Of a stretch of DNA of 28,682 nt, positions 2,891 through 27,426 are shown one piece after another. A program made the translations under genes and the position numbers. Source of the stretch: Elusimicrobia bacterium RIFOXYB2_FULL_48_7 (GTDB lineage: Bacteria > Elusimicrobiota > Endomicrobiia > CG1-02-37-114 > XYA2-FULL-39-19); contig MGVM01000088.1 in NCBI GenBank assembly GCA_001800495.1, positions 12,311 to 40,992 on the forward strand, given 5' to 3'. The notes under the pieces were generated by a model. It ran no database searches. It saw only the letters and a list, made by a program, of their open reading frames with translations, and was not told the origin of the DNA. Position 1 is the stretch's first letter. Each line of letters starts with the position of its first letter.

Positions 2891-3361
2891 GTGGCTTGGG
2901 TGAGGAGCAAAAGTTTTACTGAGGATCGCGGCATTTACATGAACTCGACGCTTGTCGACAAAGTCGTAAAGAACAAGCTTGAGGAGATATGGGTTTCCGC
3001 CCTGCGCAACAACCTGGTGGACATCAGGATCTATTTTTATTTCCCGAACCAGCCCGAACCAAAACCGACAAAGAAAGGCATATGGATTTCCTTCAAGCAC
3101 ATCCCGAAACTTATCCAGGCGTTTGAGAAACTGATTGCCAACCCTGAAGCGCTGGTGGACGTGGAGCTTAAAAGCGATAAAAAATCGCAGTTAAGAACCT
3201 ACAGCGCTAAATACGATAATAAAAATCTTGTGCATATCCGCCAATTTTACCTGAAGGCCGGGGAGTTTGCTCCTGGCAGGGGCATAGCTTTCCCGCTTGA
3301 CGTGCTTCCGCGGATGATCGAAGCCCTGAAAAAAGCCGCCCCCCTCGACGGAAAGGTCTAG
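2891..3361 (+). CDS. Protein with two tandem PC4/p15 (YdbC-like) ssDNA-binding domains
   Basis: Two PC4-like motifs: VDIRIYFYF..PKPTKKGIWISF..IPKL and VHIRQFYL..GEFAPGRGIAFPL..LPRM. GTG start with GGAG RBS at 2881. Confidence 0.75.
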   Translation: MAWVRSKSFTEDRGIYMNSTLVDKVVKNKLEEIWVSALRNNLVDIRIYFYFPNQPEPKPTKKGIWISFKHIPKLIQAFEKLIANPEALVDVELKSDKKSQLRTYSAKYDNKNLVHIRQFYLKAGEFAPGRGIAFPLDVLPRMIEALKKAAPLDGKV

Positions 3362-20391: not shown

Positions 20392-20943
20392 CTACAAGTC
20401 CCTTGTGTATCTTTTCAGGTTGTTCTTAAGCAATTTCCTGCCGCGGATCAAGCGCACGCCCACTGTATCCACCGGGATATTGAGGATTTTTGCGATTTCA
20501 TCGTATGGCATATCTTCCAGTTCCTTAAGTATGATCACTTCGCTGTATTTTTCGGGCAGTTTCGCGGTTTCCCTGCGCACAAGCTCCTGCATTTCTTTTT
20601 CTATGAGCGAATCCACCAGTTTCGGCTCGGAATTGTCGGCAAACTGCTGCTGGCGGTTTTCGGCGTCGCCTGCTCCGAGCCTTGGGGCATCGATTGAAAC
20701 AACCTCGATGTTGCGCTCCCTGTGCCGCCTGCGCGCGCGGTTTTTTTCGTTGCAGAGGTTTATGGCTATCCGGTAAAGCCAGGAAAAAATGCCGGCCTCA
20801 TTCCTGAAATTTTCGAAATTCTTGTACGCCCGGATGAAGGCCTCCTGGGTTATATCCTCCGCCTCCGCGCCGCTGCCGGTATACTTGAAGCAAAGCCTGA
20901 AGATTTTTTCCTTGTTTTCCTGGTATACTTGTTCAAATTGCAT
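20392..20943 (-). CDS. ECF-subfamily sigma-70 factor
   Basis: Region 2 'AEDITQEAFIRAYKNFENFR...FSWLYRIAIN' and region 4 'LPEKYSEVIILKELEDMPYDEIAKILNIPVDTVGVRLIRGR'. Confidence 0.93.
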   Translation of the reverse strand: MQFEQVYQENKEKIFRLCFKYTGSGAEAEDITQEAFIRAYKNFENFRNEAGIFSWLYRIAINLCNEKNRARRRHRERNIEVVSIDAPRLGAGDAENRQQQFADNSEPKLVDSLIEKEMQELVRRETAKLPEKYSEVIILKELEDMPYDEIAKILNIPVDTVGVRLIRGRKLLKNNLKRYTRDL

Positions 20944-20971
20944 AATTTAGGGGACGGAGTCAGTTTGTCAG
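20943..20971 (+). repeat. RAYT-flanking element copy 1 (TAATTTAGGGGACGGAGTCAGTTTGTCAG)
   Basis: 29-nt exact reverse complement of 24121-24149, and 26-nt exact reverse complement of 21997-22022. Confidence 0.9.
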
Positions 20972-21955
20972 CTTATAACCGCTCTTTTCTGCCAGCCTTT
21001 CTCCGCGCCTTACTGCACCACTTACCGATTGTTTGGTTATTCCAAAATACCGGCCTATCTCTGCCATATTAATTCCCAAGTCCCTATTTAGCCAGAAAGC
21101 CGCCAGGCTTCTAGCCTGAGATGCTTTATCCTTGCGGCTGAATTTTAATATATTTGCCTCATCGATTCCCATCAAATTGCAAGATAATTTTATCACCCTA
21201 TTGATATCCCAGCCATCTTTTTTCAATTTCTCTTTCTTTTTCAGGTTTTCTTCCGAAATTTTCAATACTTCATTTACGAAATCGACATCGCCTAGCAGTC
21301 GTTCATCTCCGCGCCAATTCTCCTTTAATTCCTTTATGCTGTCCCACCCGGCCAGGCTTCGTTTTAACCCGCCGCCGGATAAATCTCTGCGTTTGCCCGT
21401 GTCTTTCGCTTCGTCAATGAAAGCCAGATACTTTTTTACTGCTTCCGTTCTGTTTGAATCGAAATGCTCCAATATTTCTCCTGTCGTCTGAAAAACATGT
21501 ATCGCAGCTCCAAGCAATGCCTGATGCCCGCTCCATTTGTATTCATTAAGTTCGCTGATATCTTTTACCAGCCTGGCCCTGAGCGGGTTCAGATGAATAT
21601 ACCTGACCAGCTCCAACAAATAATTGTCTTCCTGGCAAAGTATTGATTTATACCTGTTTTGATATAAATATCCGCTCCTTTCGTATCTGGTGTTGAAATA
21701 AACCGCGTATCCGGTGAGCAATTTGCGCATTAATTCGCTTAATGATTTAGTCCCGGTTCTTATCAATAAATGAAAATGGTTGGGCATCAAAACCCAACCA
21801 TAACACTTGCAGCCTGTTTGTTTCAGTCCTTCTGAAAGGCGCCGCAGAAATTCTTTGCGATCCTGATCGTCTTTGAATATTTCTCTTCGTTCCAATCCCC
21901 GTGCAATTACATGGTATACTGCCCCTGGAATATCAATTCTTCTGTGTCTAGGCAT
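20960..21955 (-). CDS. REP-associated tyrosine transposase (RAYT; Y1/IS200-like HUH) with C-terminal DnaA-C-like HTH
   Basis: 'YHVIARG...IFKDDQDR...VLMPNHFHLL' (HUH), 'YQNRYKS...LVRYIHLNPLRARLV...YKWSG' (catalytic Tyr region), and C-terminal 'ARSLAAFWL...NMAEIGRYFGITKQSVS'. Confidence 0.9.
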   Translation of the reverse strand: MPRHRRIDIPGAVYHVIARGLERREIFKDDQDRKEFLRRLSEGLKQTGCKCYGWVLMPNHFHLLIRTGTKSLSELMRKLLTGYAVYFNTRYERSGYLYQNRYKSILCQEDNYLLELVRYIHLNPLRARLVKDISELNEYKWSGHQALLGAAIHVFQTTGEILEHFDSNRTEAVKKYLAFIDEAKDTGKRRDLSGGGLKRSLAGWDSIKELKENWRGDERLLGDVDFVNEVLKISEENLKKKEKLKKDGWDINRVIKLSCNLMGIDEANILKFSRKDKASQARSLAAFWLNRDLGINMAEIGRYFGITKQSVSGAVRRGERLAEKSGYKLTN

Positions 21956-21961
21956 AATATA

Positions 21962-21991
21962 TTTTTACCATTTTCTTAAGCTATTTGTCAA
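21962..21991 (-). promoter_or_regulatory. Putative promoter for a leaderless RAYT transcript
   Basis: TTGACA (21991-21986), 18-nt spacer, TAAAAA (21967-21962) preceded by TGg, then 6 nt to ATG 21955. No SD. Confidence 0.55.
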
Positions 21992-21996
21992 TAAGA

Positions 21997-22022
21997 CTGA
22001 CAAACTGACTCCGTCCCCTAAA
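21997..22022 (-). repeat. RAYT-flanking element copy 2 (plus strand CTGACAAACTGACTCCGTCCCCTAAA)
   Basis: Exact inverted match to 20946-20971 and direct match to 24121-24146. Confidence 0.9.
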
Positions 22023-23010
22023 ATTGGTAGCGGAGGCCGAGGGCGGCAGAGGCATTGATGTCTGCGGATTCACCGGAAAACCATATTTTAAAGTCGCCGA
22101 AGAGAAGATCAAACCCGTAAAGGATCCTCAGGTTGACCTGCGGGATGGAGGAAGAGCTGGCGCCGGACATCTCATCATTTGGAGCAGTGCGGGTGTTAAG
22201 CGGGTTGTCGGTTTGCGTCAAATGGATGTTGGTCATTGCATATGACATTTCCCCGTTTGTTTTCCCCATGTTGATATCTGCCTGGAGCCCTGCAAAAGGC
22301 GCAAACCATGAAAACCGCCTGCTTGCGATACCTTTAAGGTTTATCGAGGCAAAATTCCAGTTGACATTAATACGGTTATTCGAATTATAGGTGCGGTTAT
22401 AGGTAGTCGTGCCGTTAAACTCGGTAAAGACATCGCTCCCGGATGACGAACCGTTAAATTCGATCTTCCCGCTGATCGAATTCACGGCTATCGAGCCGAG
22501 GAAATCAAACCCGTCGGTTTTCTGCTCGAACAGCTGCATGCGCAGTTCAGCGCCGGTGACATTATTCGACAGCAGCAATGAATTATCCGTGGTTCTCAGT
22601 GACAGCCCTCCGGATTTCAGCCCCACGTCATAGCCACCCGGAAGTCCGTATTTGATATAAAGGAAAGATGAGGGCAGGGCCAGCGAAGTGAAGGGCGGGT
22701 TGCCTCCGCGCTCAAAAACATAATAATCAAGCCGCTTAAAGGCGTTTGCGTCAGTGTTTGTAATGGCAATGTTCCCGGAAAAACCAAGTTCCAGCCCTTT
22801 CACCGGTAGGGCTTTTGCCGAGGCATTCATTTCAGAACTTCCGCAGAAAGAAATGAGACTGGCGAACTGGTCAGACCACCAGCCCATGGTCAGGCCGATG
22901 TCGTGGCTGAGATCGGAATCCTCCGCTTTCGCTTGCGGGCAAATACCCGTTGTGATTCCCAGGACAAGCAAAACAGCCAGGAACCAGATCCGTCGGTTGA
23001 TTATTGCCAT
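22018..23010 (-). CDS. Putative outer-membrane beta-barrel protein (DUF6588-like)
   Basis: Signal peptide, alternating beta-strands ('LPGGYDVGLK', 'FAPFAGLQADI'), and C-terminal beta-signal ALGLRYQF. Confidence 0.7.
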   Translation of the reverse strand: MAIINRRIWFLAVLLVLGITTGICPQAKAEDSDLSHDIGLTMGWWSDQFASLISFCGSSEMNASAKALPVKGLELGFSGNIAITNTDANAFKRLDYYVFERGGNPPFTSLALPSSFLYIKYGLPGGYDVGLKSGGLSLRTTDNSLLLSNNVTGAELRMQLFEQKTDGFDFLGSIAVNSISGKIEFNGSSSGSDVFTEFNGTTTYNRTYNSNNRINVNWNFASINLKGIASRRFSWFAPFAGLQADINMGKTNGEMSYAMTNIHLTQTDNPLNTRTAPNDEMSGASSSSIPQVNLRILYGFDLLFGDFKIWFSGESADINASAALGLRYQF

Positions 23011-24038
23011 TTTATAAGGGTTTTTGAGGCCGATGAATTTTCCGTGAATACGGTTATTGTCGGGGAGTATTTTATGGTATAGACGCCTTTTTTATCCTGC
23101 AGTGACGCCTTGTACGCGAAACTTCCGTCGCTTTCAACGTTCACCGTTGTGTCAAGCAGGGACACGGGGGCGATGACGCCCGGTTTCAGCTCGTTTTCAA
23201 CCAGCGCGGTTATGTTCAAGCGCACCTTCCGCACGCCGGGAGCAATAACTTTACCCCTGATGGCCACGCCGCCTTTTTCAAGCTGCGGCTCTTCTAACAA
23301 AAGCTGCTCGCTGACTTTCTCGTAAACCAGGCTCATTATCTGGATCTTATCGGCTATGGCCGGTTTGCCATCCGGGCGGGCGAGTATCACGTTGAGTCCT
23401 TCCGTCAGCTGCGCCTTGATCTCAAACTGCATGTTTTTCACCGGCACGCTTTTGTAATCTATCTTTCGCGGGCCGCCCTTGCTGTCACCGCCTGCGCTAG
23501 CGTCTTCCGACAGGAAATACATGGTGTTCATAATAGCCGCGTCAATGGAAGTAATGTTAGGATTGGTGACAACCCCCTTGATAGACACTTCCCGGCTGTT
23601 AGTTTTTGGTTCTGTCGGCGAGGTAAAAACTATCTGGGCCTGCGCGCCCCAGTTCTCGTTTGAGGCGTTTTCCTTTTTCTGCTGTGAGATCAGGTACACG
23701 GGGACGGCTATTTCGCTCCTGCCGGCGCTGACCCTTATGATGTTAAGACCTGGTTCAAGGGTTACTTTTTCGCTGAAACTGCCGTTGATAACAGCCGCTT
23801 TTACAACCGGCTGGCCGGCGCTTTTTTTCAGGGTGAAAGGCTCCACCGAGATGCTTACCTGCCTTACCAGGTCCGTTTCAACCCGGCCGGAGACCATCTG
23901 GGAGCTGTTTTTCGTTGAGGTCACGGATGGCGACAGCAGGGTGATAAACCCACCGGATGCCGCATTACAAATGGCCGGGCAAAATACCGCAGAAATAGAT
24001 GCCAGGCTGATAAGTGCAAAAATCTTCGTTTTTCTCAT
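23001..24038 (-). CDS. Secreted protein with repeated Ig-like (glucodextranase-B-like) domains
   Basis: Start reassigned to ATG 24038 (MRKTKIFALISLAS..., GAAGGG RBS). Repeats 'NGSFSEKVTLEPGLNIIRVSA', 'QFEIKAQLTEGLNVILAR', 'DGSFAYKASL'. Overlaps the next gene by 10 nt. Confidence 0.7.
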   Translation of the reverse strand: MRKTKIFALISLASISAVFCPAICNAASGGFITLLSPSVTSTKNSSQMVSGRVETDLVRQVSISVEPFTLKKSAGQPVVKAAVINGSFSEKVTLEPGLNIIRVSAGRSEIAVPVYLISQQKKENASNENWGAQAQIVFTSPTEPKTNSREVSIKGVVTNPNITSIDAAIMNTMYFLSEDASAGGDSKGGPRKIDYKSVPVKNMQFEIKAQLTEGLNVILARPDGKPAIADKIQIMSLVYEKVSEQLLLEEPQLEKGGVAIRGKVIAPGVRKVRLNITALVENELKPGVIAPVSLLDTTVNVESDGSFAYKASLQDKKGVYTIKYSPTITVFTENSSASKTLIKWQ

Positions 24039-24072
24039 AAATTTCCCTTCTATCTCATTCCTTAAACTGACA

Positions 24073-24106
24073 TACCCCGTATCCTTCCCATCAGATAGCA
24101 AGGGTA
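24073..24106 (+). repeat. Bulged-hairpin repeat, copy 3, degenerate (TACCCCGT-ATCC-TTCCCATC-AGAT-AGC-AAGGGTA)
   Basis: 29/35 identical to copy 2. Confidence 0.65.
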
Positions 24107-24120
24107 TCAAACTCACTAAA

Positions 24121-24149
24121 CTGACAAACTGACTCCGTCCCCTAAATTA
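24121..24149 (-). repeat. RAYT-flanking element copy 3
   Basis: CTGACAAACTGACTCCGTCCCCTAAATTA, a 29-nt exact inverted match to copy 1, 5 nt past the stop of 24155..25417. Confidence 0.9.
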
Positions 24150-24154
24150 CTAAA

Positions 24155-25417
24155 TTAATACTCATAGCCTACGCCCAGCATGTAGGAGTAAGCGTTGAAG
24201 TTATACTGGAAATATTTTTCGTAGAGCATGTTGGACCGGGAATTCCTGAAACTGCACGAAATGCTTGCCAGGTATTTTTTCATCACAGGGAAAGCGAACC
24301 TGAGGTTCATCACGTTTGAACTCTGGTAAATTTTTTCCTCGTCCGCCGCGTAGTTACCGTTGACATCCTGGACAATGCGGCTGGAATAATTTTTCCGGAT
24401 TACGTCATAGGAAATGCTGAGGTCGGAGTTGGCGGGCAAAAACCTGAAGGTCACGGACGGCGTGATGCAGGTCTGCCTGTAGTCATAATAATCCCCTATC
24501 CCCTTTATTTTTTCCGTGTCGAACTGGTTCTGGTTGGAGTCCTTGGCTATGCTTTCGTAGTTTATCCCCAGGAAAGTCTTGACTTTCCTGCGACCTTCAT
24601 CATCCGCCCCAAGGGGTACCTTGAAATCCGGTATGAGCTGGCTGACACCTACGGTAAAATTGGAATAAGCGTCCTTTCTTTTTGTGTCAAGGTAATGGCC
24701 GTCAACTATTGAAACCACCTTCTGGTCGCCGTAATTGCTCTGGGTCGCGCCCAGCTTGCAGGCAAGGAATGTGCGGTTAAGTAGCCATTCCATCTTTATG
24801 AATGTCTCGCCGCTTGCTGTATCAAGGACTTTGTCCCCCGATAGCAGCTGGGAATATTGCGTTGAATCGGCGGAAAGCGCCCGGTAATTCGGGAAGGTGG
24901 TGGAATATATCCTTTCACCGAAGGTTATGCTTATCGGTTTTTCAAACTTTTTTTCCATGCTGACTTCAAGGTGGGTTTTGCCGTAATCATAAAGGCCGCT
25001 GCCCCAGGATTCATCGGCGGTTTCCCTGGCAAGCTCGCTCTTGAAACCCAGTTCGCCCCTTAATATCCAGCTGGTGTTTAGCTTGTCCACAATCTTTGTG
25101 TAAAGAAGATTGTCCCAAGTCTGCACGTAAATGTTGCCTTCTTCTTCAATTTCCTTCGGCATCATGGTGCCGGAATAATTTGAATTAAGGCGCGGTAAAA
25201 GTGTAAGTTTTTCGTTAAAGATCACGGCAGGAACATAGTCAATGTCGTAGCTGATGCTCGGGGTCCCCGAGTTTTCGAGGTAAAAAGCGTTGCCGAAACC
25301 CAGCGACGCGTTGAAGAGCGGCATGATCTTTGTTTCCGCTGACGCCTGTCCGGCAGACATAAGAGCGGCCGATCCCGAAACAAGCAGCAGGGCCATAAAT
25401 TTGATTTTCCGTGTCAT
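24155..25417 (-). CDS. Putative outer-membrane beta-barrel protein
   Basis: Start reassigned to ATG 25417 (GGAGGG RBS). Signal peptide, Tyr/Ser/Asn-rich amphipathic strands, and C-terminal YMLGVGYEY. Confidence 0.72.
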   Translation of the reverse strand: MTRKIKFMALLLVSGSAALMSAGQASAETKIMPLFNASLGFGNAFYLENSGTPSISYDIDYVPAVIFNEKLTLLPRLNSNYSGTMMPKEIEEEGNIYVQTWDNLLYTKIVDKLNTSWILRGELGFKSELARETADESWGSGLYDYGKTHLEVSMEKKFEKPISITFGERIYSTTFPNYRALSADSTQYSQLLSGDKVLDTASGETFIKMEWLLNRTFLACKLGATQSNYGDQKVVSIVDGHYLDTKRKDAYSNFTVGVSQLIPDFKVPLGADDEGRRKVKTFLGINYESIAKDSNQNQFDTEKIKGIGDYYDYRQTCITPSVTFRFLPANSDLSISYDVIRKNYSSRIVQDVNGNYAADEEKIYQSSNVMNLRFAFPVMKKYLASISCSFRNSRSNMLYEKYFQYNFNAYSYMLGVGYEY

Positions 25418-25484
25418 TTTAAGTTTCCCTCCGTAAAAATCTGTGTTTTTATTATACATTTTTTTGCCTCAATTTTCCTGTCAA

Positions 25485-25555: not shown

Positions 25556-26773
25556 TTATTTGTTCTTTGAAAGGTCGCTGGTGGCGACTTTCACGAAAAT
25601 GCTGGGCGACCAGATCACGTCTATGCTCCTGCTGCCGAATTCAGTGGCTGTCCATATGCCTTCATGGTTGAGCTCGCTGAGTTTCACCGCCCAGTTGTCC
25701 GGGGTGATGCTGCGCAGCATGTTGACGAAGCTCCCTAAGGAAAGCTGCTCGCCGTCATCCTTAATCCATGTTTCCCTATGGGAAAGCGAAGTGCCGTCCG
25801 CGAAGTTTACAGTGTTCGTCCAGTCAAGTTTCTTGTTTATCAGCTGGCTTAATGTCATGTCGCTCCAGGCATTGATATCATTTACCTTGGTCCCGTCCCA
25901 ATAAGAATCGCAGGTGGTATGGGCCCAGGTCAGCCCGTCAACAAGAGCATACTTGCCATTAGCATTATAAATGCTGTCCCTTTTGCTGGGGTCTACTGTC
26001 ACGGTCTTTGAAAGCTCATTGGTTGTTGACTGGTACTTCGGGAGGTAATATTCCAATGTTCCCAGCGTAGCCGTGCCTGCTGTCCCGCCGACATGCGCCA
26101 GGCGAACCTTGGTGATGTCATCTGAATTCGCGGCAGTTTTTAGCTTAATGTACGAATTCTCGTAGATCACGTCATATTTATAGGTTGAATTGAACAGATC
26201 CGTGAAGGTCGGGACCTTGTACAGGTCGCCATTTTCCGCTTGGAACGCCACGGAATCGCCCTTGTCGTTAGAAACTCTGCTGTCGATGCTCTTGGCATAA
26301 AACTCCGGAGCCGTGATGTCAGACAGCGCGCCTGAATCCCACTTGTTGGGGTCAAGCTCGCCGACCCTGCGGATGTCCGGGGCGTTGGTTTCAAGATCAA
26401 CCGGAATATCCTTGTTAAGCGTGTATACTGCCTTGAGCGTGTCTACGCCAGTATCCCTTTTGGTGTAGGTAAGGAACTCAATCTGGTTCGGCTGGGGAAC
26501 GAGGATGTACTGTTCAAGCCGCACCCTGTTGCCGTGGACGTCGGTTAAACTCTTGCCATCCTGGTATTCGCCGAGTTTGAGATCCTGCACGCCTATGGTT
26601 TCCATCTGTTCCCTGCTCTTGCTGTCGTTTACTTCCTGCTTGAGTTCGCTTCTCAAGGAAGCCAGCGGGCCCGCGACCATTTCTTCCGCCAGGCAGAACT
26701 TTGCTGCCGTTCCCAAGATTATTGCTGCCGCGATAACTGCTTCGATTCTTCTACTGATGTGCATGCTTTTCAT
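25556..26773 (-). CDS. Secreted hypothetical protein
   Basis: AGGAGGA RBS, signal peptide, 405 aa. No family confidently recognised. Confidence 0.75.
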   Translation of the reverse strand: MKSMHISRRIEAVIAAAIILGTAAKFCLAEEMVAGPLASLRSELKQEVNDSKSREQMETIGVQDLKLGEYQDGKSLTDVHGNRVRLEQYILVPQPNQIEFLTYTKRDTGVDTLKAVYTLNKDIPVDLETNAPDIRRVGELDPNKWDSGALSDITAPEFYAKSIDSRVSNDKGDSVAFQAENGDLYKVPTFTDLFNSTYKYDVIYENSYIKLKTAANSDDITKVRLAHVGGTAGTATLGTLEYYLPKYQSTTNELSKTVTVDPSKRDSIYNANGKYALVDGLTWAHTTCDSYWDGTKVNDINAWSDMTLSQLINKKLDWTNTVNFADGTSLSHRETWIKDDGEQLSLGSFVNMLRSITPDNWAVKLSELNHEGIWTATEFGSRSIDVIWSPSIFVKVATSDLSKNK

Positions 26774-26797: not shown

Positions 26798-27358
26798 TTA
26801 GATTCCCGCGATTGAGATAATTTCTTTTGCCTGGCTGTTGGCCAGGTTCGTCAGCGCCTTGTCCGACGTCTTTTTTACGGCTACTTCGTACAGCACTTCT
26901 GAATTAACAACCACTTTTGCCCGCGCCAGGCGTGCCGCTTGCACTGCTTCGCCTGCCTTGACCGAATCATAAATGTGATGCCCCCTGATCCCTATAGTGA
27001 TCAAAAGGGCCAGTGTCACTACTGCCATTGTATATCTCGGCTGAAGCACGGTTTTGAAACCACCGGCCAGCGCTTCCTTTATATTATCCAGCAAACCCGG
27101 CTCACTGGTTGTTGCTTCTTCAAGTTTCTTGCGGAAAACGCTGTCAAAATCGTTTGACAGAGCCGGCACAGCCGTGTTTGAAAGGTTGTTCTGGAATAAA
27201 TTGTGAAGTTTAAGCAGGCTCTGGCTTTCCCTGGCGCAGGATGCGCATGCATCCAGGTGCGCCTTTAGCAGGCCGGCTTCTTCTGCGGTTATAATGGCGT
27301 CTATCTGTTTGTTTATGAGTGCTTCGGTTTGTTTGCAACTTATGTTTTGATTTTTCAT
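26798..27358 (-). CDS. Zinc-binding (zf-HC2/ZAS) transmembrane anti-sigma factor
   Basis: Start ATG 27358 with AAGGA RBS. 'SCKQ...HLDACASC' gives Cys plus HxxxCxxC, followed by a single TM 'YTMAVVTLALLITIGI'. Confidence 0.85.
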   Translation of the reverse strand: MKNQNISCKQTEALINKQIDAIITAEEAGLLKAHLDACASCARESQSLLKLHNLFQNNLSNTAVPALSNDFDSVFRKKLEEATTSEPGLLDNIKEALAGGFKTVLQPRYTMAVVTLALLITIGIRGHHIYDSVKAGEAVQAARLARAKVVVNSEVLYEVAVKKTSDKALTNLANSQAKEIISIAGI

Positions 27359-27426
27359 CTTGCTATCCTTTCTCGGTATTTGCGGCTTCACCTAGTTAGA
27401 TGACACAACCTTCCAAAATCTTTCAC

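Follow-up and report, generated by a model that had tools for sequence, protein, structure and literature searches.

A TIRYT transposase and its terminal repeats within a conserved sigma-factor operon of an Elusimicrobia bacterium

Background

Genes that resemble the REP-associated tyrosine transposases (RAYTs; REP, repetitive extragenic palindrome) and are flanked by terminal inverted repeats (TIRs) have been termed TIRYT, and the units they form TIRtrons (Di Nocera et al. 2013, BMC Genomics 14:522, PMC3733652). In the portions of that study used here, the TIR consensus is given as GGGGWSAS and TIR families are described as occurring in single, dimeric or grouped copies. According to the corresponding portions of Quentin et al. 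2018 (BMC Genomics 19:475, PMC6006769), most TIRYTs belong to TnpA_REP subclass 2.1, with a Bac_DnaA_C or helix-turn-helix (HTH) C-terminus, and recognition of the ends by this HTH is doubted there, GGGGWSAS being unlike the DnaA box. In the literature searched, the terms TIRYT and TIRtron were met only in these two papers, and the portions used of either contain no biochemical tests. Here we describe such an element in a 28,682-nt stretch of DNA (the window) from Elusimicrobia bacterium RIFOXYB2_FULL_48_7 (contig MGVM01000088.1, positions 12,311 to 40,992), in which a 26-nt repeat, element E, occurs three times (E1 to E3) around a transposase gene and two genes for envelope proteins, one immunoglobulin-like (Ig) and one resembling outer membrane proteins (OMP). 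An earlier, sequence-only reading had proposed an atypical HUH element able to capture and mobilise these two genes as cargo. We consider it very likely that positions 20950-22018 are instead a TIRtron inserted in a pre-existing six-gene operon, that E3 is a solo copy of its repeat, and that the Ig and OMP genes are residents that happen to lie between two repeat copies. The element itself is a TIRYT/TIRtron, a class already described.

Results

The transposase gene and its ends

The element, its repeats and its predicted signals are as follows (positions of the window).

20950-22018, minus strand: TIRtron unit of about 1.07 kb, bounded by the GGGGAC and GTCCCC termini and situated between the OMP gene and a gene for an extracytoplasmic function (ECF) sigma factor
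20960-21955, minus strand: TIRYT gene, 331 aa, with a Y1/HUH domain and a predicted C-terminal DnaA-domain-IV-like HTH (about residues 239-324)
20946-20971, minus strand: E1, TIR at the right end (gene 3' side); the final four codons of the transposase (K-L-T-N) and its TGA stop lie within the iterons (frame taken from the open reading frame (ORF) at 20960-21955)
21997-22022, plus strand: E2, TIR at the left end (promoter side); the OMP gene takes the last base of its TAG stop from the first G of E2
24121-24146, plus strand: E3, a solo copy of the TIR, located 9 nt past the stop codon of a 434-aa gene, with its GGGGACG end towards that stop
24063-24078, plus strand: degenerate second TIR-like unit, consisting of GGGG, 3 nt and then GTCAGTTTA on the minus strand; oriented as E3
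21962-21991, minus strand: putative transposase promoter, with a TTGACA -35 box (21991-21986) abutting the inner iteron, an 18-nt spacer, TAAAAA (21967-21962) and 6 nt to the ATG

The three 26-nt copies are exact, and none would be expected by chance (0 in 100 dinucleotide-preserving shuffles). The layout noted in the sequence-only reading is thereby borne out: E1 and E2 enclose the transposase alone, E2 and E3 form a perfect pair of direct repeats around exactly the Ig and OMP genes, and each copy contains a tandem 8-mer, AAACTGAC twice. The terminus of E, GGGGACGG, fits the published GGGGWSAS at seven of eight positions, position 7 being G and not A. That reading had also given greater weight to E1 and E3, which match over 29 nt. 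The length is right, but the additional 3 nt (TTA) lie outside the CCCC terminus in an A/T-rich flank, and if a 1-nt gap is allowed, the match between E1 and E2 continues through ATAAG on the inner side. Similarity that runs inward fits two ends of one element, and we therefore rejected E1/E3 as the better pair.

Single-strand folding gave a minimum free energy of 0 kcal/mol for each of E1, E2 and E3. No stable hairpin is formed and E was rejected as a REP; the earlier view that E is not a REP palindrome holds, while the 3-bp hairpin ascribed to it does not amount to a stable fold. The same window also holds a classical, GTAG-tagged REP family (9284, 10530, 12284 and 15528; palindrome GCCGAT/ATCGGC) with a hairpin of -4.9 kcal/mol (z = -2.5), so that a hairpin-less TIR family and a GTAG REP family stand side by side. 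Rfam contained no family matching the element region. Each E copy with its flank (20944-20971, 21997-22024 and 24121-24148) further shows an outward promoter-like pattern, CTGACA, 16 nt, and TAAAAT or TAAATT. It was rejected as a promoter because transcripts would be antisense or would start within the sigma ORF, and it is probably non-functional.

The TIRYT protein matches Pfam Y1_Tnp (E=4e-14), scores 80.2 bits against NCBIfam REP_Tyr_transpos (cutoff 80) and reaches 17.4 bits against NCBIfam transpos_IS200 (cutoff 55). The HUH motif at H60/H62 and a Tyr cluster at 96-102 are invariant in the homologue alignment (A1). Towards the C-terminus, Pfam Bac_DnaA_C is matched at E=3.5e-6 with 27.4 bits, under its gathering score of 31.5; a profile built from 20 homologues finds DnaA domain IV in the PDB, over residues 239-324 (E=0.0015), and most TIRYT homologues carry a precomputed PF08299 annotation. 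A phmmer search of the PDB with the N-terminal 200 aa returned nothing relevant. From the profile matches, the C-terminus is predicted to be a DnaA-domain-IV-like HTH.

At the left end, the transposase mRNA would appear to be nearly leaderless, with the putative promoter overlapping the repeat; a consensus promoter scanner did not call this TTGACA/TAAAAA pair, which is read as a promoter by inference. At the right end, the iterons (20960-20974) are at the same time the transposase C-terminus, K-L-T-N-stop, and the tails of homologues are similar (K/Y-L-I/L-S/N, alignment A1). Because the right TIR encodes the tail of the protein, the iteron sequence is under constraint in two ways, as a DNA site and as coding sequence.

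The interrupted operon and its counterpart in a relative

The element lies within a run of six genes on the minus strand, each with an orthologue in a relative (loci L125/L126).

20392-20943, minus strand: ECF sigma factor, the last gene of the operon, its ATG 6 nt past the right TIR; 70% identical to the L125 orthologue
22018-23010, minus strand: OMP-like beta-barrel gene, with a weak DUF6588 match; 61% identical to the L125 orthologue at the same operon position
23001-24038, minus strand: Ig-like secreted protein gene, with a weak Glucodextran_B match; 63% identical to the colinear L125 orthologue
24155-25459, minus strand: the 434-aa gene, unannotated; L125 orthologue 59% identical
25556-26773, minus strand: 405-aa gene, unannotated; L125 orthologue (398 aa) 63% identical
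26798-27391, minus strand: zf-HC2 anti-sigma factor; L125 orthologue 42% identical

In the relative (L125:5872-11546) the genes for the anti-sigma factor, the 398-aa protein, the 434-aa protein, Ig, OMP and sigma factor are all colinear with the window, at 42-70% amino acid identity, and the spacers between them contain no TIRYT and no GGGGACG-type repeat. The gap between OMP and sigma genes, where the window carries the TIRtron, is 13 nt there, and the spacer between the 434-aa and Ig genes is 22 nt in the relative vs 116 nt in the window, a surplus of about 90 nt at E3. The OMP proteins also end differently, in RYQF-stop in the window vs RYQVKI-stop in L125. Apart from the protein itself, a search of 5.8 billion proteins found only one cluster of OMP homologues, 61% identical, from another Elusimicrobia metagenome-assembled genome (MAG) and in the same operon context.

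Since all six genes are colinear in a relative that lacks a TIRYT, Ig and OMP are native to the operon. From this comparison of gene order we conclude that they are resident genes of a conserved ECF-sigma operon rather than cargo, and that the TIRtron and E3 are lineage-specific insertions into operon spacers; the capture of envelope genes proposed in the sequence-only reading is not supported, the nearest relative keeping both genes in place without TIRYT or E3. If a TA was duplicated on insertion, the empty OMP/sigma junction is predicted to have been approximately CAATTTTAAATTATGCAA.

As for the operon itself, the anti-sigma gene comes first and the ECF sigma gene last, around four secreted or envelope proteins of unknown function, and this arrangement is kept in two Elusimicrobia MAGs. 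An inversion between E copies was considered as the cause of the sigma-last order and rejected, as the relative has the identical order. A genome of the same genus (G001) contained no OMP or Ig homologue in the synteny comparison, the proteins of the neighbourhood being only 30-40% identical.

Architecture across the family

Inverted ends that finish in CGTCCCC and carry variable tandem 8-mers were found in all seven full-length homologues inspected, two in this genome and five in three relatives. We extended this to 80 loci in species-representative genomes (Elusimicrobiota, Omnitrophota, Desulfobacterota and others) at 44-64% identity, which yielded 60 usable TIR pairs. These start with (G)GGGACG, followed by two tandem 8-nt iterons, which answers the question raised beforehand of whether homologues with the DnaA-C-like HTH have similar ends. 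An internal repeat period of 8 was seen in 56 of 62 TIRs, and 61% of TIRs reach an iteron unit identity of at least 75%, vs 7% of shuffles. The geometry is likewise uniform: about 57-65 nt separate the left terminus from the ATG, and the stop is followed after 16-40 nt by the right terminus, giving units of 1.05-1.12 kb among the surveyed TIR-bearing loci. An exact TTGACA abuts the iterons at 19 of 60 left ends vs 1 of 60 right ends. A -10-like hexamer comes next and, about 7 nt further on, the ATG. Tandem TIR duplications at the left end recur (L055, L081, L103 and L119). The HUH element with inverted ends that the sequence-only reading discerned is correct in substance, these ends being family-wide, but it is not new. 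The family is large (at least 7,976 of 8,000 scored candidates at E<=1e-10), and no full-length TIRYT homologue was found among the PLSDB plasmids.

The two domains of the protein differ in how they vary, with a mean pairwise identity of 0.61 in the HUH domain vs 0.40 in the C-terminal domain of the homologue alignment. Among 62 elements, and with the residues encoded by the right TIR left out, iteron similarity tracks HTH-domain identity given the HUH domain (partial Mantel r = 0.39, permutation p = 0.001) and does not track the HUH domain given the HTH (r = 0.02, p = 0.35). This covariation fits a division of labour in which the HUH domain would act on GGGGACG and the HTH on the iterons. The suggestion, made from the window alone, that the HTH may bind the iterons is therefore plausible.

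Several further observations concern the integrity of these units. In the TIRtrons of two relatives (L011:1428-1446 and L025:2536-2554) one outer end carries a tandem duplication of 13 nt, namely GTCCCC and the 7 nt after it; nicking or joining could have left it as a footprint. More than 12 of the 80 MAG contigs (e.g., L045, L089, L094, L101, L111 and L083) have an end no further than about 200 nt from the TIRYT gene, and in several the first base is exactly that of a TIR terminus; such assembly breaks suggest more than one genomic context for the element or its end. One relative (G002) has, on contig C6, a second copy of the right end of its C66 element. At L067, two units of about 100 bp that resemble miniature inverted-repeat transposable elements, each made of two facing TIRs (2660-2759 and 3222-3321), lie 7 kb from the TIRtron, with further solo copies close by.

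Solo repeats in this genome and elsewhere

Genome-wide counts refer to a 2.2-Mb MAG that is 79% complete. It holds six copies of the E family, the three in the window plus one solo copy each on contigs C25, C55 and C170, so that four of the six are solo, and those on the other three contigs each sit at the 3' end of an ORF, unrelated to any cargo. Such a count had been named beforehand as a check on the cargo idea, and it goes against it. Relatives carry 0-4 solo copies per TIR family, including three perfect ones in G002; solo TIRs are nothing unusual in this family.

There are three transposase paralogues in the genome. The one on C78 (971-2047, locus L007) forms a second complete TIRtron, with a TIRYT that is 55% identical and an inverted pair of its own, in which the core GACTNCGTCCCC is as in E and the tandem 8-mers differ; its iterons, TATTTGTC/TATTTGAC, sit on the common GACTACGTCCCC core. 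A solo copy of the C78 type (C35:6805-6822) overlaps the 3' end of a 543-aa ORF. The third paralogue (C72:990-1830, L008) is shorter (about 235 aa), 37% identical and unmatched in the HTH region; GGGACGGTTCTAGTTAT lies on both its sides in direct, not inverted, copies, and an unrelated CGTCCCC is found 7 nt from its start. Decay or rearrangement of a TIRtron may account for this locus.

Additional TIRs within 10 kb were found at 19 of 62 TIRtrons, a clustering that, by a rough estimate, looks far above what random placement of a few copies per genome would give. Relative to the transposase gene, these extra TIRs point away at 14 loci, towards it at 1 and both ways at 2 (tallied by eye). Where an ORF could be assigned to a solo TIR, the GGGGACG side faced its 3' end in 19 of 21 cases and its 5' end in 2. 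The outward orientation follows from this simpler rule, namely that the GGGGACG end faces the 3' end of the adjacent gene, and since TIRs lie in the gaps between genes, one or two whole genes are often enclosed by them. The bracket formed by E2 and E3 is, for the same reason, an expected by-product. One locus departs from the common layout: L118 (7434-12975), alone among the 80 loci, has no proximal left TIR. A left-type TIR is present 2.5 kb upstream, separated from the TIRYT by two genes on the opposite strand, and an additional right-type TIR lies 1.9 kb downstream.

A search for rearranged forms of the locus

Rearrangements were sought in Logan contigs of three public runs at 3-7x depth. 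Across E1, E2 and E3 the contigs keep to the reference arrangement; alternative junctions at E (circles, deletions or inversions) were absent from the contigs of the three runs, a weak test at this depth, as rare variants could escape it; the junctions expected from the cargo idea thus failed to appear. Joints and depth peaks at 21620-21920 stem from conserved HUH domains of other organisms. Two further assemblies with the locus are 100% identical to the window and share its arrangement, and are not independent evidence.

Discussion

Probable insertion into a resident operon and its alternatives

On the reading that we hold very likely, a TIRtron entered the short gap that separates the OMP gene from the ECF sigma gene, and E3 was seeded in a nearby intergenic gap, just past the stop of the 434-aa gene. 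For the mechanism we postulate the following. The variable HTH would bind the variable iterons, giving each paralogue its own ends, and the conserved HUH/Tyr domain would act on the conserved GGGGACG terminus. Binding at the left iterons would autoregulate the transposase gene, because these iterons abut the -35 box of the nearly leaderless promoter. Extra repeats would cluster near TIRtrons if the enzyme prefers sites near its own gene, and the copies that survive, or are targeted, would be those whose GGGGACG end adjoins a gene's 3' end.

The explanation from which the work started makes E1 and E3 the alternative outer ends of a 3.2-kb composite, with a transposase that mobilises, excises or inverts the OMP and Ig genes as cargo. 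The nested layout of E is real, extra TIRs at other TIRtrons point outward at 14 loci vs 1 and often surround one or two whole genes, and L118, 1 locus of 80, lacks the proximal left TIR and has two genes between its TIRYT and a left-type TIR 2.5 kb away. All the same, the Ig and OMP genes occupy the same places in the same six-gene operon of a relative without transposase or TIR, the sole cluster of OMP homologues among 5.8 billion proteins is always in that operon context, the bracketing and orientation of TIRs follow from intergenic gaps and the 3' ends of adjacent genes, and contigs run colinear across E1, E2 and E3 without joints (low power); we consider the composite very unlikely. A purely recombinational account, in which the direct repeats E2 and E3 are the substrate for on/off deletion of the two surface-protein genes without the transposase, draws on two perfect 26-nt repeats around exactly Ig and OMP. 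Similar repeat pairs surround unrelated genes at many TIRtrons, however, the two other assemblies of the population show the same arrangement, and no deletion junction was seen in the contigs of the three runs (low power), which leaves it the least probable of the explanations weighed here.

The TIRYT could also be a domesticated DNA-binding regulator. Its solo TIRs would then not be substrates of transposition; as operators, or as elements of 3' ends, they would modulate the genes beside them, which here are the envelope-stress operon with its sigma factor. The iterons adjoin a conserved -35 box, solo copies stand in fixed orientation directly past stop codons, and copy numbers are low with each paralogue present once. 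Bertels et al. 2017 argue that housekeeping-like behaviour is general among RAYTs. Against this, the HUH and Tyr residues are strictly conserved, the many MAG contigs that begin exactly at a TIR terminus and the second partial copy in G002 indicate recent duplication or mobility, and the relative has no such element at the orthologous position. A regulatory role alone is therefore improbable in our view, if the least so among the alternatives. Marginally further from acceptance is a wider hypothesis that joins several of these strands: TIRYTs would seed their own ends in cis past the stops of neighbouring genes, with GGGGACG pointing away from the transposase; nested ends would occasionally serve as alternative termini, so that Ig and OMP could be inverted, deleted or moved; and an HTH-iteron code would keep the ends of each paralogue private. 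We regard it as a long shot, yet still ahead of the plain composite.

Insertion of a TIRtron into a resident operon thus remains our preferred reading, and some points weigh against it. The proteins of the relative are 60-70% identical and its spacers cannot be aligned base by base, so the element might have been lost there. The outward bias of extra TIRs (14 vs 1) is predicted by nested alternative ends as well. Shared ancestry can inflate the Mantel result, and fast-evolving iterons and HTH domains may just track recent divergence. Finally, HTH binding, the nick site and the mobility of solo TIRs are all inferred from sequence.

For annotation, the consequence is that the envelope genes are better described as part of a conserved ECF-sigma operon than as transposon cargo. 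Covariation of iterons and HTH, the left-end promoter, the clustering of extra ends near the gene and the 3'-end orientation rule may be new for the family, and its features offer a starting point for the biochemistry of an HUH enzyme that uses inverted repeats in place of hairpins.

Comparison with known systems

With composite or cargo transposons and the one-ended capture of IS91/ISCR, the locus has only a superficial layout in common, i.e., genes between possibly recognised repeats; here the genes between E copies are native to the site, and no second context was found, nor any junctions in a low-power contig test. The IS200/IS605 insertion sequences (IS608, ISDra2) share the HUH/Y1 catalytic fold family (Pfam Y1_Tnp) and, unlike the present element, have no TIRs, carry subterminal hairpins on one strand and reach high copy numbers. 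In the classical RAYT/REP systems (REPtrons; E. coli TnpA_REP, Pseudomonas REPINs) a single-copy Y1 gene likewise stands between inverted short repeats, the repeat is dispersed intergenically, for the most part downstream of genes, and paralogues differ in the repeat family that belongs to each. In contrast to these, E has neither a palindrome nor a GTAG tag, occurs in 3-6 copies rather than hundreds, and is associated with a protein that has an extra HTH.

The nearest match is the TIRtron of Di Nocera et al. 2013, for which the portions of that paper used here describe a Y1/HUH RAYT-like gene with long TIRs instead of REP hairpins, a GGGG start, TIRs at fixed distances that overlap the 3' end of the gene, low-copy TIRs elsewhere (single, paired or grouped), and coexisting paralogues each with its own TIR, all as found here. 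The same portions make no mention of tandem 8-nt iterons, of an abutting -35 box or of a 3'-end rule for solo copies, and Elusimicrobiota are not among the hosts they name. In terms of the TnpA_REP classification, as far as the portions used of Quentin et al. 2018 describe it, the protein resembles subclass 2.1.2 (Bac_DnaA_C/HTH_23/HTH_28 C-terminus) in its two domains, its length of about 330 aa and the lack of REP-like hairpins nearby. The doubt expressed in the same portions, that the HTH recognises ends defined by GGGGWSAS, meets a different candidate in our data: the variable iterons beside that motif co-vary with the HTH, and would be a plausible target for it.

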